From the IMG/VR virus record IMGVR_UViG_3300045988_150299, positions 1-37,040 of that record: a stretch of 37,040 nucleotides of DNA; one strand, given 5' to 3'. Shown one piece after another: positions 4,116-36,154 of the stretch; positions within the stretch are counted from its first letter, which is position 1; each line of letters opens with the position of its first letter. This DNA is from a virus. A model generated the notes under the pieces. That model saw nothing but the letters and a program-made list of their open reading frames with translations. It was not told where the DNA came from and ran no database searches. The position numbers and the translations under genes were made by a program.

Positions 4116-5627
4116 TTAATAATAAGTTGTTAGTGGTCCATCAAAACTATCTTTTAGATATATGCTAGCAAATATCATAGCAGTTCTAAATGAATCTGCG
4201 TCATCAGAAGCTTTATCATTTGCGTCGTGGTCTGGTATATCTAAGTAACAGTTCATGGACTTGTTATATTTTTTGACATAGCCTCCTAATTGTATAACTC
4301 CTATGTTACACTCGTTATTATCTATCTCTACATTGTCAAACTCCTTTCTTATATAGTTGATTTGATTTATTAATGTAGTCATATCATTTTTAGCTAGCTC
4401 TGTCTTAGACAGAGTTCTTACATCACTAAAATAATTTAATCTTATGTAGTCACTTCTTTTTGAAGTTGCACTCCATTCCTCGACATCTCCATCATGTGGT
4501 AGTACCATAGTAGGCTGCATATAGTACCCATTATCTTTGCACCATTTCTTTATATATTGGCAGCAGTGGTCTGGTCCTTGCCCAGTAACTCTATAATGTT
4601 TTATGAATCTAATTCTATTATTGTGAGGGTTTTTTTGAAAAAACCACAATACTGTATGGTCCCTTTTTCCTATATCCCAAGCAACATATAAAGGTTGTTG
4701 TGTCCAGAAATGCCCTGTGTATATTTGAGTATATCTTCTACTTACACTATCTAATAACTCTTCATACCTACCATAAAACTTTATCCTTTCATCTTCATAA
4801 GCTTTTTTTAGTTGTTCTCCATACCAAGCACCAACTAGATGAGTATTGATTTTACATTCCCACTCTTGAGCGTATGAATCTGGGTCCATAGTAAGAGCTT
4901 GTTTTCTAAGTTCTTTATCATTTATTACCCTCTCCCCTTTGTAGTTCAAAGAATCTTTTCCAGATTGAATATCTACATACCACATATCTTTAATTTCTTT
5001 ATTTTCTGGTTTACTTAGGATAGTGAAGTAATCTATAAAAAGTTTAGTAAACCAATTATATTTACCCCTCGGTGTAGAGATAAATATTACAAAACCGAAG
5101 TCGGTATTGTTAATAACCATATCAACTGCAGGTTTCATATATTGATAGAACTTTTCTTTTATAAGTGCTGCCTCTGTGTAAATAACTCCTCTAGCTCCTA
5201 CTCCTACACTTGCGTCTGGGTTATCTCCTCCACGAAAGAAGATTTTAGCTCCATTAAATAAAGTTACACTCCAATCGGATTTGTTAACTTTAGGTCCTCT
5301 TGGATTTGCTAGTATTTCATCTGGTATGAGGTTTTCAAGTAAAGGTAAACCGTTTAAGGTTTTCCCATCTACAACTATTTCTTTTACCTGTCTAAAGTAT
5401 GGTGCATAGATATAGTAGTTTCCTGGGTGTTGTATTGCAGCTAGTATCATAATGAGTAATGAAATAAAGTCCTTACCATATCTTCTATGAGCCATTAGTG
5501 CAAAATACTTTTTCTTATTTTCCAGGACATTGTCCAGAAGTTCTTTCTGTCCTTTGTGTAGATATTTAATAACTTTTTTATAACTGATAGTTACTCTTCT
5601 TTTTGCTGCTCTTCCTAAAAAATTCAA
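4116..5627 (-). CDS. terL: Terminase large subunit
   Basis: Walker A-like AHRRYGKD, Walker B-like GVIYTE, coupling motif ISTPRG, and nuclease motif [13 protein letters not shown] start 5 nt after the SD AAGGAGGTG. Confidence 0.75.
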
Positions 5628-26142: not shown

Positions 26143-26622
26143 TTATCTCTCCTCCTTTTCCCATGCTTCTACATCATAGAATTTATCAAGGATTTTTCTT
26201 GCTTTTCTAAAAGTCCCAACTTTTCTAAAGTTATATCTTTTAAAAAACTTCATAGCCAGTTTATATGCTGGACTTTCTGGAACTATATTTAATTCTATTT
26301 TTTTGTAGAGCTTATCAAGCATACTACAAAATTTAGCGAAATCATCTAAGAACTCTTTTCTCTCTGTGAGGTTATCTCCTAGAAAAATAAAGTCTAGTGA
26401 TATTATTTTGTCATGTGGTATGTTATAGATACAGCCCATATAACCTACTATGTGTCCATCATGGATAGATAACATCATCAGTTCATCTAGCCCTTTTATA
26501 TTTAGGTCATCTAATGAACCTGTGAAAAACTTATATTTTTCAATGTTTGCTTGTTGCTCCTCTTCTAGTATTTCTTTTAGCACTAGAAAAGCTTTATCTT
26601 CTCTTGATACTCCCTCAAGCAT
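26143..26622 (-). CDS. GNAT-fold acetyltransferase-like protein
   Basis: HIVGYMG strand and the C-terminus AYKLAMKFFKRYNFRKVGTFRKA...FYDVEAWE are typical of GNAT. The canonical Q/RxxGxG/A motif is not obvious. Confidence 0.4.
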   Translation of the reverse strand: MLEGVSREDKAFLVLKEILEEEQQANIEKYKFFTGSLDDLNIKGLDELMMLSIHDGHIVGYMGCIYNIPHDKIISLDFIFLGDNLTERKEFLDDFAKFCSMLDKLYKKIELNIVPESPAYKLAMKFFKRYNFRKVGTFRKARKILDKFYDVEAWEKEER

Positions 26623-27111
26623 TTACACAACCCCCTCAACTTGTAAGAATTTCTTAGTCTTGTCATCTCTTTGCTCTTGCTTGTCCTCTGTCTTTTCTCC
26701 CAGCTCTAATGAAACCTCAATGTTATTAGTTCCACCTTGCTTGTCCCAGCCTGCCAGAGTTTCTATTCTCTCTGATAGCTGAACTGCTGCTTTAAAATCT
26801 ACAAATTTACCTGTTTTTTCTAGTAGTCCTTTGTCTGTAAGTCTTATAATCTTTGTATCTTCTAGTCCTGCTGCCTGTTCAAATAGCCCTTGCATTATTG
26901 CTAAGTGTCCCATTTTATCTCTTCCAAGCATAAAGTCCACCATTTCCAAGTGTTCCTCTATTTGCTTGTTGATTTTCTTGCTACTCATTAGCTTGTGCAT
27001 TAGCTTTAGGTCGAATGGGATTCCAGCAGCTTGCATGGCTTTAAGTCCATTTTTGCAAACTAGAAATGATGATATGAACTTCTCTTCTTGCTCTTTGGTT
27101 ATTCCTGCCAT
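26623..27111 (-). CDS. Terminase small subunit-like DNA-binding protein
   Basis: The N-terminus EEKFISSFLVCKNGLKAMQAAGIP resembles the Terminase_2 HTH. It is the second gene of the late operon. Confidence 0.4.
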   Translation of the reverse strand: MAGITKEQEEKFISSFLVCKNGLKAMQAAGIPFDLKLMHKLMSSKKINKQIEEHLEMVDFMLGRDKMGHLAIMQGLFEQAAGLEDTKIIRLTDKGLLEKTGKFVDFKAAVQLSERIETLAGWDKQGGTNNIEVSLELGEKTEDKQEQRDDKTKKFLQVEGVV

Positions 27112-28187
27112 TCTAACTCTGCCCCCTCTTCTCCTAGTCTTATTTTTATACTAACTTTAGCTATTTTTTTGAGTAGTTTTTCCAATCTTTCAAAGTTCTT
27201 GGAATAAGACTTTTTAATCTCTCCAAGTTTTTCTAACTCTTCCAGCTTTTCAATAACTTTCTTTTTCTGGTATTGAATAGCTCTTTTTTTAATACTCATA
27301 TTATTTTCAGTCATTACAACATCAAGTAATCTAATATCAAATATTAAATACTCTTTCATCATAAGTCTTTCTGCTAACCCCTTAGTTCCTGGAGCAACTA
27401 TCTTTTTTAATTCTGCGATGTCATAGTTTAACTCTTTGACTATCTGCTCTGTAAGTATTGCTCCTATTGTTTTTCTAAGTGATGAAGCTAGATTATCTTT
27501 AGTTATTCCACCTAAATGATTTAAGTTGTAGGTCTTGAGGTGCGGAGGTCTTAGTGTCAACTCTCCTCTTAATGCTTGTCTTTTCTTTACTCCCTCTTTT
27601 CCCGTATCTTCCATCTCTTTTCTTTTGGAATAGATTTTAAAGTAAGCCTTGCTATCTCTTGGTCTTTTACCTTTTTCTCTAAAGTCTACTCCGTCAAGTT
27701 CCAATCTTTTTTTGTTGTCTGTATCAAAATACATTCTTGAGGTTGGAAAGATATTTTTATAGGCTCTGTATATCAAATTTAAAACTTGATAATAATTTCT
27801 AATGTTCTCAACTTCTAATTGGTTTGAGAGGTCTAGACTTGTTATAACTATATCCTCTTCTCTTACAAGTTCCCCTGTTATGCTTCTAAGTATTAAGATT
27901 AATTCTTGATGTACTTGAGCAATAACTTTTTTATTTGTTACTAGCTTGTAATTGTCATTGTTATCATATCTGGAATAACTAAAAGATATTGTTATAGTTA
28001 TAGAGTTTCTTTTCTCCTCTACTCCTATAAAGTTTAACCAGCTAAATTTTTTTAGCTGGATATTTTTATATAATATTCTTTTATTTTCTGCTTGTGCCTC
28101 TTCTTTCAGTAATAGATTAGCTGACCCGATTATAAAATCAAAGTCAGTTTGTCTAACTGAATAATTTATACTTGCGGTATCTACAAT
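27099..28187 (-). CDS. Rep_trans (pT181 RepC-like) rolling-circle replication initiator-like protein (the track ORF begins at the TTG at 27776; the ATT at 28187 is the proposed start)
   Basis: 137 stop-free codons lie upstream of the TTG and contain no ATG, GTG or TTG. SD AAGGGGGTG (28202-28194) lies 6 nt before the ATT that follows a TAG. Motifs ITSLDLS, RMYFDTD, KIYSKRKEMED and LRGELTL parallel RepC TRLDLAF, KYFGVRD, RIYNKKQERKD and WRVEIEL. Confidence 0.5.
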   Translation of the reverse strand: MVDTASINYSVRQTDFDFIIGSANLLLKEEAQAENKRILYKNIQLKKFSWLNFIGVEEKRNSITITISFSYSRYDNNDNYKLVTNKKVIAQVHQELILILRSITGELVREEDIVITSLDLSNQLEVENIRNYYQVLNLIYRAYKNIFPTSRMYFDTDNKKRLELDGVDFREKGKRPRDSKAYFKIYSKRKEMEDTGKEGVKKRQALRGELTLRPPHLKTYNLNHLGGITKDNLASSLRKTIGAILTEQIVKELNYDIAELKKIVAPGTKGLAERLMMKEYLIFDIRLLDVVMTENNMSIKKRAIQYQKKKVIEKLEELEKLGEIKKSYSKNFERLEKLLKKIAKVSIKIRLGEEGAELEWQE

Positions 28188-28391
28188 CTAACCCACCCCC
28201 TTTTAATTTTCTAAAAGATAGCTTTAAGTTTTAAAACTATCTCTAAGAAAATCAGGTATATTTTATTTTTTTATATGCTGCTCTCTCTAATATAAACGGG
28301 AGCATTATATATAATTTTATGTCAAAAAATTTTTTTAAAAACATAGAATTTATGCTAGTTTCAGAAGATTTTTTCTTACTTTTATACCCTC

Positions 28392-28417
28392 AAAAACGCA
28401 ATTTTTTTTGCGTTTTT
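28392..28417. terminator. Bidirectional terminator hairpin (aaaaacgcaa/ttgcgttttt)
   Basis: Perfect 10-bp stem with a T6 loop, A/T runs on both sides. Confidence 0.55.
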
Positions 28418-28445
28418 TGGGTAAAAAAATATTTATTAGTATGTT

Positions 28446-33418: not shown

Positions 33419-34378
33419 ATGGAAATTAAAAATGAAGTTGTAGAATACTCAAAAGATTTTGCTACCAGCTTCAATGAGTTTGGAAGTTATGAACTTGATT
33501 TAATTGTAACTTTAGCTTATGCTGCTAGAAAAAAAATTAAAGACCATATGAATGTAAATACAAATGAGAATGTAAATTTGTTTTTAGACCCTAAAGTCAT
33601 AAAAAAAATGGTTCAAGGAAATGTAAGTACCAAAAGAATAGAAGAGGCTTTGAAAAACATTTTTAATACAAGTGTTCAAATAAAAAAAGATGGGTACAAG
33701 CTGCATAAACACATATTTGAAACTTTGATGTATACAGAAGATAAAACAGAAATTATATTTGAATTAAAAAAAGATTTTATCCCACTTTTTTTTAATTTAA
33801 GCAATAATTTTACAAGACATGAATTACTAGAATTTACAGGTTTAAAGGGTAGACATTCCAAGAGGCTCTATCAAATAGTTATGAGTTATAAAAATTTAAA
33901 GTCTTGGGAATTTGCACCAGATGAATTTTTAAAAATTTTAAATACTCAATATAGATGGGTAGATGTAGAAACTAAGATAATAAAAAAAGCTGCAGAAGAA
34001 CTAGCAGAGAAAACTAATATAAAAAATCTAAAAATGGAAAGAGTAAGAACAGGAAAATTTATTACTAAAATAATTTTGAGTTGGGATATAGAGCAAATGG
34101 AAGTGCTAGATAAAGATGGAACTGAAACAGAAATAAAAGAGGCTGAAAAAGTTGAATCATTAACATTTGAACAGTTAGAAGATTTGGAAAAAGCTTTAGA
34201 AAAAGCTAGAAAAAATAGGTTTATAGAACCTTATTTAACACTTGAAAATGTTGGAAAACTTATGGAGAACTTTCCATATGAGCAATTGAAAAAAGGCTTG
34301 ATTTCATGTTACAAAAATATCAATATTGAGATTAGAAGTTTTAGTTACATATTTAATCATATTAAGGGGGTAAAATGA
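33419..34378 (+). CDS. Rep_3 / RepB-family iteron-binding plasmid replication initiator
   Basis: The N-terminus EYSKDFATSFNEFGSYELDLIVTLAY and the central FTRHELLEFTGLKGRHSKRLYQIVMSYKN...FAPDEFLKILN fit the Rep_3 winged-helix pattern. Iterons lie upstream. Confidence 0.7.
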   Translation: MEIKNEVVEYSKDFATSFNEFGSYELDLIVTLAYAARKKIKDHMNVNTNENVNLFLDPKVIKKMVQGNVSTKRIEEALKNIFNTSVQIKKDGYKLHKHIFETLMYTEDKTEIIFELKKDFIPLFFNLSNNFTRHELLEFTGLKGRHSKRLYQIVMSYKNLKSWEFAPDEFLKILNTQYRWVDVETKIIKKAAEELAEKTNIKNLKMERVRTGKFITKIILSWDIEQMEVLDKDGTETEIKEAEKVESLTFEQLEDLEKALEKARKNRFIEPYLTLENVGKLMENFPYEQLKKGLISCYKNINIEIRSFSYIFNHIKGVK

Positions 34379-35184
34379 AAGTAGTATCATTTATAAATCA
34401 AAAGGGTGGAACAGGAAAAACAACAGGGGCAAGGGAAGTCGCTGGAATGTTAGCACTTAATTTTAATAAAAAAATATTGCTGATAGATTGCGACTACCAG
34501 CAGAACTTAACACAAAGTTTTATATTTGATGATGAAGAAAAAGACTTATTCAAAGCTTTAAAAGAAAAGTCTTTAGCAAATAATATAATACAAATACATG
34601 AACTAAAAATAGTAGAAAATAAAGATACAGGTATTAATGAAGTAGAAAAAGGAAGATATATTTTAGATTTTATCAAAGGTAGTTATGACCTAAGAAACCT
34701 AGATTTAACAATGGATAAATGGGACCAAGAAATGATATATTTCAATCTAAAATCAGAGCTTGAAAAATTAGATTATGACTATGTAATATTTGATTGTAGA
34801 CCTAGTATAGATTCTTTAGAAAGAGCTGTGTTATCTCTTAGCAATTATGTTTTAACTCCAATAATACCACATATATATAGTGTTCAAGGGTTAAATATAA
34901 TGCTGCAATTTATAGAAGCTTTAAAAGAAAATTTAAACACTCCATTTATACACCTTGGATATTTTAACCAGGTGCCACTTGATAAAGATATTTTAAAAGA
35001 TATAGAAGAGATTAGAGAGGGGTATTCCAATATTTTAAAAACTCAAATTAGAGATAATGGGAAATTAAAATATTGTGCTAGAGATGGATATTTTATAGGA
35101 CAATATAGCCCTACAAGTAATGGAGCTAAAGACTTTAAAAATCTTACTAAGGAGTTGTTAGAGATATGGGAAAACCAACAATAA
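34375..35184 (+). CDS. parA: ParA-family partition ATPase
   Basis: Deviant Walker A NQKGGTGKTT. Its start overlaps the rep stop. Confidence 0.85.
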   Translation: MKVVSFINQKGGTGKTTGAREVAGMLALNFNKKILLIDCDYQQNLTQSFIFDDEEKDLFKALKEKSLANNIIQIHELKIVENKDTGINEVEKGRYILDFIKGSYDLRNLDLTMDKWDQEMIYFNLKSELEKLDYDYVIFDCRPSIDSLERAVLSLSNYVLTPIIPHIYSVQGLNIMLQFIEALKENLNTPFIHLGYFNQVPLDKDILKDIEEIREGYSNILKTQIRDNGKLKYCARDGYFIGQYSPTSNGAKDFKNLTKELLEIWENQQ

Positions 35185-36130: not shown

Positions 36131-36154
36131 AGAGAGGTATATATTTACCTCTCT
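36131..36154. terminator. Bidirectional terminator between the convergent plasmid operon and lysis genes
   Basis: Stem agagaggta/tacctctct with a 6-nt loop, an A-run upstream and ttttgtttt downstream. Confidence 0.7.

Follow-up and report, generated by a model that had tools for sequence, protein, structure and literature searches.

A predicted AUU-initiated Rep_trans-fold protein, and candidate rolling-circle nickase, encoded by gut phage-plasmids

The nearest described counterparts of the protein considered here are the initiators of pT181-type plasmids, RepC, RepD, and RepDE (PF02486; structures 4CWC and 4CWE). The catalytic residue of RepDE is Tyr191, which is adjoined by Glu196 and by Lys193, the latter critical for religation, and the carboxylates of Glu214, Asp142, and Asp46 act as metal ligands (PMC4797284). 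Phage-encoded nickases that start rolling-circle synthesis are found in gpII/G2P of inoviruses and RstA of CTXphi (PF05144/Rep_trans), and the MOBT relaxases, such as NicK of ICEBs1 and RelSt3, are encoded directly downstream of their own hairpin-containing target sites. Phage P1 carries a plasmid replicon, repA/parAB, and a separate lytic replicon, repL. Here, we describe a minus-strand gene of 362 codons in a viral sequence of 37,040 nucleotides (nt) (IMG/VR record IMGVR_UViG_3300045988_150299, positions 1 to 37,040; hereafter, this whole stretch is the window). Its product is a divergent branch of the Rep_trans superfamily that lies outside PF02486 as now defined, and the gene, to judge from its relatives, starts at ATT.

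The reading frame runs without an internal stop from ATT at 28187-28185 to TAA at 27101-27099 on the minus strand (27099..28187), and the open reading frame (ORF) listed for this region begins only at TTG 27776, which lies in this frame 137 codons further in, and gives a product of 225 residues. The original prediction, made from the letters of the window, had proposed that a coding N-terminus is hidden upstream of that TTG; its coordinates, the TAG-ATT junction, and the open extension of 137 codons lacking a canonical start could all be reproduced, and the ITSLDLS, RMYFDTD, KIYSKRKEMED, and LRGELTL motifs are all found in the conceptual translation. A stop-free run of this length has a probability of ~2e-6 by base composition (GC content 28-30%) and arose in 1 of 100,000 shuffles. 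The part missed by ORF callers (codons 1-137; 27777..28187, minus strand) holds beta-strand 1 with Asp3 as well as the SFSYSRY and LDLSNQ motifs, and contains no ATG, GTG, or TTG, compared with 10 such codons in the remaining 225 (27102-27776). This scarcity is itself no more than mildly unusual (P ~0.008 by window codon usage; 2.7% of 137-codon windows in other window genes lack them), and it is not conserved, as relatives have such codons there.

That this N-terminal part is coding, as had been proposed, is borne out by homologue coverage, selection, and structure prediction. A search of 5.8 billion proteins gave 49 homologue clusters at 33-98% identity, many of them 356-374 residues long and covering 100% of the 362-residue query, and the homologue alignment is unbroken from the conserved N-terminus, I-V-D-T-A-x-I-x-Y, onward, with this stretch kept in relatives down to 17-23% identity. 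Against the close relatives L001-L005, the ratio of nonsynonymous to synonymous substitution rates (dN/dS) is 0.14-0.32 for codons 1-137 and 0.17-0.34 for the rest of the gene. The extension alone matches phrog_36664 (E 7e-4), a family of 370 positions with no assigned function that is collinear with residues 44-350 of the protein. An AlphaFold2 model built on the family alignment has a mean predicted local distance difference test (pLDDT) score of 90.1 and a predicted template modeling score of 0.86; residues 2-11 form the first beta-strand, and the mean pLDDT of the first ten residues is 93.

The family is, on the sequence searches made, small and isolated. When 1.84 billion cluster representatives were searched exhaustively with a HMMER profile, 31 proteins were returned, all of about 360 residues; searches of phage and plasmid collections with tblastn and megablast gave no match to the gene or its product, and scans for the family found nothing in genome contigs and two loci only in metagenomes. 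One homologue, P0001, has 416 residues and comes from a contig of 5x coverage (L011), in which about 410 nt of unrelated, GC-richer DNA (L011:1-410) with an N-terminal ORF, MLNESIKKLVTYGMETGLVPECERNYTINLLLDLF..., is fused in frame at SINYSV. We set it aside both as a truly longer homologue and as an attachment junction, since it is most likely an assembly chimera.

For the initiation codon, the N-terminal DNA was read in 30 loci from about a dozen lineages, the window included. In the window, the ATT (28185..28187, minus strand) directly follows an in-frame TAG (28188..28190, minus strand), the sense reading being ...AAAAGGGGGTGGGT TAG ATT GTA GAT ACC, and an extended Shine-Dalgarno sequence, AAGGGGGTG (28194..28202, minus strand), lies 6 nt before the ATT, with its GGGGG core ending 8 nt before it. 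At the homologous position, 28 of the 30 loci have ATT, ATC, or ATA: ATT in the window, L001-L005, L014-L020, L024-L027, L029, L035, and L036; ATC in L006-L010, L012, and L013; and ATA in L028. The other two, L021 and L022, are the most distant of the loci read and have GTG. A strong, often extended Shine-Dalgarno sequence precedes this codon at a near-constant distance in all 30 loci, with a GGAGG-type core ending about 5-10 nt upstream; the motif GGGGGTG, GGAGGTG, or GGAGGG is separated from the codon by 6 nt in most loci. No ATG, GTG, or TTG is found between the preceding in-frame stop and the homologous codon in 14 loci from five lineages, where the in-frame codons read TAG ATT (the window, L035, and L036), TAA (AAA CAA) GGA GGG TTT AAA ATC (L006-L010, L012, and L013), TGA GTA GAA ATT (L024-L026), or TAA AAA GAA GGT GAT ATA TCA ATT (L027).

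The remaining relatives have an in-frame GTG that gene callers use, which yields annotated N-termini such as 'MGWIVDT' and 'MQIVDT'; judged by its position, this GUG is part of the extended Shine-Dalgarno motif, GGAGGUG. In the window, the corresponding GTG (28196-28194) is excluded as a start because the in-frame TAG (28190-28188) intervenes. Among 36 window genes examined, 30 have a recognizable Shine-Dalgarno core, and in 27 of these the spacing is 4-10 nt; at the gene described here, the spacing is 8 nt for the ATT and 0 nt for GTG 28196, and TTG 27776 has no Shine-Dalgarno sequence. Distant relatives (17-23% identity) have a methionine on, or at most 3 residues from, the position of Ile1 (MLDTA, MIDTA, and MVDNG). 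L035 and L036, which come from two samples and encode a protein 72% identical to that of the window, share an identical GGGGGTGGGTTAG-ATT and an intact frame of 362 codons, and the window differs from L001-L005 in having TAG instead of TGG at the codon preceding ATT. Recoding or suppression of TAG was ruled out, as 6 of 31 genes in the window end in TAG and no tRNA is encoded there. Because the position of the Shine-Dalgarno sequence, the startless lineages, and the TAG-ATT relatives at 72% identity agree, we accept the start that the original prediction had placed at ATT, 6 nt downstream of a Shine-Dalgarno sequence; on this comparison of 30 loci, AUU (AUC in one clade) is the initiation codon of the family.

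Starts of this kind have bacterial parallels. In Staphylococcus aureus, conserved AUU/AUA starts always occur with an extended Shine-Dalgarno sequence and give about 10% of the output of AUG (PMC13009471). As in infC (AUU/AUA), pcnB (AUU), and the S. aureus genes cvfC1 (AUU) and ccpN (AUA), a weak near-cognate start is conserved among homologues of the gene described here, and in all of them the weak start is joined to a strong, extended Shine-Dalgarno sequence at proper spacing (PMC13009471). Unlike these bacterial genes, ours belongs to a phage family whose members variously use AUU, AUC, AUA, or GUG at one codon, and many of its relatives have the in-frame Shine-Dalgarno GTG that misleads gene callers.

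Pfam, NCBIfam, and PHROGs were searched with the complete protein, with the extension, and with the short ORF, and the only significant library match is the unassigned phrog_36664. Below threshold, one of 32 family members matches the Pfam family Rep_trans (E 0.0044) and two match Phage_CRI (E 0.07). Structure comparison is more informative about the fold. The two best Foldseek matches to the model in the Protein Data Bank (PDB) are both RepDE, 4cwc and 4cwe (E 7.6e-6 and 1.3e-5; probability 1.0), with a template modeling (TM) score on the target of 0.45-0.47 and an identity of about 12-14%. TATA-binding protein (TBP) is found at rank 8, which is expected because the Rep_trans beta-sheet resembles TBP (PMC4797284). 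The named matches among the ten best in BFVD are an inovirus G2P, an inovirus Rep, and an uncharacterized Inoviridae protein, with no others named. At the level of the fold, the model has the extended, pseudo-symmetric beta-sheet that marks Rep_trans proteins such as RepDE and RepSTK1.

For a comparison of profiles, RepC (314 residues) was rebuilt from pT181. A homologue search with RepC recovered only relatives at least 81% identical, too uniform for a diverse profile, and a Rep_trans alignment was instead assembled from plasmid tblastn matches down to 20% identity. The alignment of the family (32 sequences) to this profile by hhalign has a probability of 88.6% and an E of 2.7e-6 over 175 columns, pairing residues 110-342 of the window protein with 133-306 of RepC and thus taking in both the catalytic and the C-terminal domains; against the single RepC sequence the probability is just 13-25%. 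The C-terminal helical domain (about residues 230-362; 27102..27500, minus strand) has modeled helices at 230-264, 301-321, and 331-343, and its residues 285-342 pair with the C-terminal DNA-binding domain of RepC; judging from the model, it is probably the DNA-binding and specificity domain.

The same alignment places a predicted active site in the window protein. Tyr186 in KIYSKRKE (codon 27630..27632, minus strand) pairs with the catalytic Tyr191 of RepC and is invariant in the 32 sequences, down to 17% identity. Lys188 pairs with Lys193 and Arg207 with Arg212, a conserved motif residue, each being kept in at least 90% of the family, and the conserved Glu191 pairs with Glu196. Glu209 in LRGELTL (27561..27563, minus strand), also invariant, pairs with Glu214 and is a predicted metal ligand, as is Asp119 in LDLSNQ (27831..27833, minus strand), which pairs with Asp142 in the TRLDLAFD of RepC at a position that is Asp or Glu in all family members. 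The residues invariant to 17% identity are Tyr186, Glu209, and Gly166, and 21 residues separate tyrosine and arginine in both proteins (Tyr191-Arg212 and Tyr186-Arg207). A candidate third ligand, equivalent to Asp46 of RepDE or Asp9 of RepSTK1, is Asp3 in IVDT (28179..28181, minus strand), which lies in beta-strand 1 and is Asp in every member whose called protein reaches that column; if Asp3 is a ligand, the third residue is part of the active site, which would account for the high conservation of the extreme N-terminus. Two assignments in the original prediction did not hold. Tyr153 in RMYFDTD, its candidate for the catalytic tyrosine, is Phe in P0006 and P0008, and Tyr191 of pT181 RepC, which it placed in KYFGVRD, is the tyrosine of RIYNKKQE in the rebuilt protein (PMC4797284).

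In sum of architecture, the protein shares with the pT181 initiators the series Y-x-K-x-x-E, 15 residues, and R-x-E-x-x-L at the same spacing, an acidic residue in a strand of the form L-D-x-x-x-[DQ], a division into a catalytic beta-sheet domain and, C-terminal to it, a helical one, and conserved hairpins adjoining the gene. It differs from them in being ~50 residues longer, with insertions between the acidic strand and the tyrosine strand, in being encoded not by a small plasmid but by a 37-kb tailed phage-plasmid at the head of its structural genes, and in starting at AUU/AUC with no sign of pT181-style antisense attenuation. Like gpII/G2P and RstA, it is phage-encoded; unlike the inoviruses, which are single-stranded DNA (ssDNA) phages with gpII as their sole replication system, its carrier is a double-stranded DNA tailed phage-plasmid with a separate Rep_3 replicon, and there is no significant sequence match to gpII/G2P or RstA, the two weak Phage_CRI matches coming from distant family members. 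The MOBT relaxases share the superfamily, were compared here only via the shared Rep_trans profile, and resemble our gene in lying directly downstream of a hairpin; no conjugation genes were seen in the window.

The genomic setting is that of a phage-plasmid. The plus strand encodes a Rep_3 plasmid initiator (33419..34378; Rep3_N at E 5e-16 and 59.7 bits against a cut-off of 22.4, and Rep3_C at E 4e-7 and 30.5 bits against a cut-off of 21.1) and a ParA-type partition ATPase (34375..35184; AAA_31 at E 2e-35 and the ParA-like phrog_164 at E 6.5e-45), together with a RecE-like exonuclease and a RadC-like protein. With Rep_3 and ParA alongside phage genes, the element is by gene content a phage-plasmid, and the setting that the original prediction had supposed, in which the gene described here would add a second replication system, is the one found. 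A comparison with P1 on general knowledge shows the same combination of a Rep-plus-ParA maintenance module with a second, differently regulated initiator; RepL of P1 is no Rep_trans nickase, and a lytic role for our protein is a prediction only.

The minus strand carries, in order, helix-turn-helix (HTH) regulators, a 430-nt gap, the gene described here, a 162-residue gene, a 159-residue gene, a T7-type portal gene (PF12236), and tail genes, and this same-strand block has at its other end the gene for the terminase large subunit, TerL (4116..5627; phrog_2 at E 1.8e-27, with Terminase_3 sub-threshold). The order of HTH genes, gap, our gene, a ~165-residue gene, a ~160-residue gene, and portal is the same in all clades, often on ~37-kb contigs from human-gut samples. 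Nothing in the phage collection is more than 25% identical to the portal (best phage matches, 22-25%), and by this measure no characterized phage is close to the element.

The 162-residue gene (26623..27111, minus strand) starts at ATG 27111 and so overlaps the stop end of our gene by 13 nt. Its product is weakly TerS-like, by synteny and by PF03592 (Terminase_2), which matches the window protein over model positions 3-103 of 141 with an E of 0.01 and a score of 16.9 bits (cut-off, 26.1) and is found in 6 of 13 syntenic homologues (best E 0.006); PHROGs gave no match for this protein. The homologue matches weakly favor the TerS-like neighbor that had been proposed, every PF03592 match being sub-threshold. 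In L035 (2535-2620) and L036 (1293-1380), the TerS-like gene has GTA at the position of the window's ATG, the next ~20 codons (ITKDQEEKFISSFLVC...) are conserved in frame, and callers leave a protein of just 137 residues. The operon may have, here, another start that is non-canonical or coupled. The 159-residue third gene (26143-26622 in the window) gave no match, and its homologue at L035:3020-3499 weakly matches Acetyltransf_4 (GNAT), which is unexpected next to a TerS-like gene and a portal. Just past the portal, within the structural block, genes of anti-defence type (Tad2-like PF11195 and Sequestin PF21825) and a dUTPase_2 gene are found at L021:14060-14570 and L012:12274-12498.

Two conserved hairpins lie between the HTH genes and the start codon. 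The gene-proximal one, leader hairpin B (28206..28252, minus strand), is directly upstream of the Shine-Dalgarno sequence and has arms of 22 nt each (28206-28227 and 28231-28252) that are 86% complementary around a 3-nt loop, with a folding z-score of -4.6. Ten clade representatives carry a hairpin in this position, with a conserved base (TGTAaTTCTTrG ... CTnTrGAAtTATA) below an upper stem that differs by clade. Across these ten, RNAalifold assigns it 23 pairs, 17 of them with compensatory changes, and 96.1% of the cells are paired, compared with 70.8 ± 2.1 in shuffles (0 of 500 reach 96.1%) and 38-49% when the pairing partners are slid. Sense-strand G·U pairs make up ~15% of the paired cells, and two positions are G·U in 7-9 of the ten sequences; because these would become A·C mismatches on the other strand, the hairpin is strand-specific. 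On this pattern, it is probably an mRNA leader element, or acts in sense-strand ssDNA, rather than being a double-stranded operator or a symmetric cruciform. The 12-bp inverted repeat that the original prediction had offered as an operator or nick-site hairpin is thus real, as part of this larger structure, but covariation and the G·U pairs disfavor the operator role. Rfam returned only spurious microRNA-hairpin matches for the leader. In the window and L001, the GGGGU of the Shine-Dalgarno sequence has a possible pairing partner in UACCU, immediately 5' of hairpin B (28188-28262, minus strand); this pairing, unseen in the other clades, would lengthen the helix and partly sequester the ribosome-binding site.

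Hairpin A (28380..28429, minus strand), a long palindrome conserved in sequence and occurring once in the window, was found 200-400 nt upstream of the gene in each of the clade representatives examined. It consists, in order, of a T-run, TACCC, AAAACG, a variable stem-loop, CGTTTT, GGGTA, and an A-run, so that on the sense strand the T-run comes first and the A-run last, the reverse of an ordinary terminator. Its counterparts are L001:2756-2805, L012:5745-5790, L014:110-167, L015:381-433, L017:1008-1083, L018:1234-1285, L021:9602-9655, L024:1063-1122, L027:1174-1229, L028:868-920, and L029:1087-1138. By its form and place, it is a candidate for an unusual terminator, for an origin or nick site, or for a pac site. 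Between the two hairpins, most clades have the conserved AT-rich motif (A)GTAAATATATAA (window ~28290-28330, minus strand; equivalents in L001, L005, L012, L015, L018, L024, L027, L028, and L029), which by its sequence may be the promoter -10 element of the operon. Several clades have it in the loop of a small inverted repeat peculiar to each clade, with a T-rich tract after it; a near-perfect copy is found at 36137-36148, minus strand, upstream of a holin-like gene. The motif is not enriched in the window (33 matches compared with 24 expected), and a scan for consensus promoters and terminators was uninformative. Within the N-terminal coding region, where pT181 has its origin, is a near-perfect hairpin at 28035-28062, CCAGCTAAA aaaa TTTAGCTGG; we set it aside as a pT181-like internal origin, as the five longest inverted repeats of L001 and of L005 do not include it, and it is therefore probably incidental.

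We think it probable, with considerable reservations, that the gene encodes a 362-residue, AUU-started, divergent Rep_trans protein acting as a nickase that starts rolling-circle synthesis. The AUU would be positioned by AAGGGGGUG, an extended Shine-Dalgarno sequence with a GGGGG core ending 8 nt before it, and the weak start would probably limit the protein to roughly a tenth of AUG output, by analogy with other AUU/AUA starts. The N-terminal beta-sheet catalytic domain would present Tyr186 in Y-x-K-x-x-E, followed by R-x-E (Arg207 and Glu209), with Asp119 and probably Asp3 as acidic metal ligands, and the C-terminal helical domain likely binds DNA. Rep_3 and ParA would maintain the element as a plasmid prophage; transcription of the structural block would then produce a small amount of Mg-dependent nickase, which would cut one strand at its cognate site, a candidate for which is one of the two conserved hairpins just upstream. 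The free 3'-OH could prime rolling-circle (sigma) synthesis by host enzymes, giving the concatemers required by the TerS-like and TerL packaging proteins, and leader hairpin B would most likely act in the mRNA, in stability, processing, or translational control. A lytic rolling-circle role is plausible, and we infer nickase activity, low output, and nicking at a nearby hairpin.

Several observations weigh against this explanation. The search of the 362-residue product against PF02486 and PF05144, by which the Rep_trans-like identity was to be judged, found neither Rep_trans nor Phage_CRI even at E<=10, and NCBIfam gave no match for the window protein. The exhaustive profile search recovered no Rep_trans protein or other known Rep among its 31 proteins, and the family profile gave chance matches only when compared with PDB sequences. 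The Rep_trans-like identity stands on the fold search and the profile-profile comparison, not on a hidden Markov model (HMM) match, and the Foldseek TM-scores are modest (0.35-0.47), with a high root-mean-square deviation. No clear counterpart was seen for ETxYxGxRxS, the Rep_trans motif that precedes the catalytic tyrosine (Thr176, Tyr178, and Gly180): in the stretch that matches this region, LDGVDFREKGKRPRDSKAYF, Gly166 is the sole invariant residue and there is no T-x-Y-x-G pattern. The equivalence of Asp3 to Asp46 of RepDE would rest on conservation and position in the strand, as hhalign is unreliable at the N-terminus, where its columns have zero confidence. Hairpin B looks strand-specific, as RNA would, and no nick site is assignable from sequence. 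Finally, with a TerS-like gene immediately after it, the gene might function in packaging or transfer instead of replication.

This last point leads to an alternative that we regard as rather unlikely, though it is inseparable from the replication nickase by sequence alone, namely, that the same ATT-started Rep_trans nickase is a MOBT-like relaxase for conjugative mobilization of the plasmid prophage or a site-specific nickase that, together with the TerS-like protein, makes or marks the packaging start. The 13-nt overlap, the pairing of the two genes in every clade, and the unique conserved palindrome just upstream (hairpin A), a frequent location of pac, cos, or oriT sites, would all fit, as would the Rep_3 replicon already present and a RecE-like exonuclease that, with its neighbor gene, might drive recombination concatemers, although no annealase was identified. 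To our knowledge, Rep_trans nickases play no part in any described terminase system, none of the window proteins scanned was recognized as a conjugation or coupling protein, and the nearest structural relatives of the protein are replication initiators, even if Rep_trans does include relaxases of integrative and conjugative elements (PMC4797284). The TBP likeness of the Rep_trans sheet (PMC4797284), with TBP at rank 8 in Foldseek, raises a further alternative, that the protein is a non-catalytic DNA binder of Rep_trans/TBP-like fold, such as a late-transcription activator or an organizer at the head of the structural operon. The position of the gene at a regulatory junction and the lack of clear counterparts to Thr176, Tyr178, and Gly180 are in keeping with such a role, but the tyrosine, the lysine at +2, the glutamate at +5, the R-x-E, and the acidic ligand are invariant or nearly so down to 17% identity, a pattern expected of an enzyme, and low expression from AUU fits a nickase better than a stoichiometric activator. 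We consider this alternative improbable.

The remaining alternatives concern the gene itself. L001-L005 have TGG where the window has TAG, with an in-frame GTG two codons further upstream, and callers annotate these relatives as MGW... or VGW...; the window copy might thus be dead through a TGG-to-TAG nonsense change at codon 3 of a GTG-initiated gene (GTG GGT TGG ATT). That GTG lies within the Shine-Dalgarno sequence, at a spacing of 0 nt compared with 4-17 nt in the other genes of the window, L035 and L036 (72% identity, two samples) share the TAG-ATT with an intact frame of 362 codons, three other lineages are likewise without a canonical start, and the window's 362 codons contain no further stop or frameshift, all of which make a dead gene very improbable. 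Least credible is a gene that yields just the 225-residue product from TTG 27776, with the upstream 411 nt as an untranslated leader. It has in its favor that this is the sole ORF listed by a standard caller, yet the TTG has no Shine-Dalgarno sequence, and the upstream part is under purifying selection, is conserved family-wide, and contributes one half of the beta-sheet along with one or more of the predicted metal ligands.

Beyond the nickase explanation itself, the observations can be joined in a wider reading that we offer as tentative and think less likely than not. A gut phage-plasmid lineage would throttle a cryptic Rep_trans-fold nickase by means of a conserved, IF3-sensitive AUU/AUC start and a covarying leader hairpin, and the nickase, translationally coupled to the TerS gene, would switch the Rep_3/ParA theta plasmid to rolling-circle concatemers by nicking at one of the conserved upstream hairpins. 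If this is true, the lytic replication origin and the packaging start lie together.

Rep_trans initiators, AUU starts, and two-replicon phage-plasmids are each already known singly. What is new is a Rep_trans branch that is invisible to current HMMs and is carried by tailed phage-plasmids, a family-wide AUU/AUC start that is systematically mis-annotated, and a covarying leader hairpin. For annotation, the implication is that callers cut members of this family to ~225-350 residues or start them at a GTG of the ribosome-binding site, and every database copy is labeled 'hypothetical'. For translation, the family shows, by clean comparison, a phage gene that has kept an AUU/AUC start, and it obeys the same extended Shine-Dalgarno rule that experiments in S. 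aureus recently established. For replication, the results point to a second initiator, of the rolling-circle type, in uncharacterized 37-kb gut phage-plasmids with T7-like portals, and if this is so, how plasmid prophages make their packaging substrates becomes directly testable.

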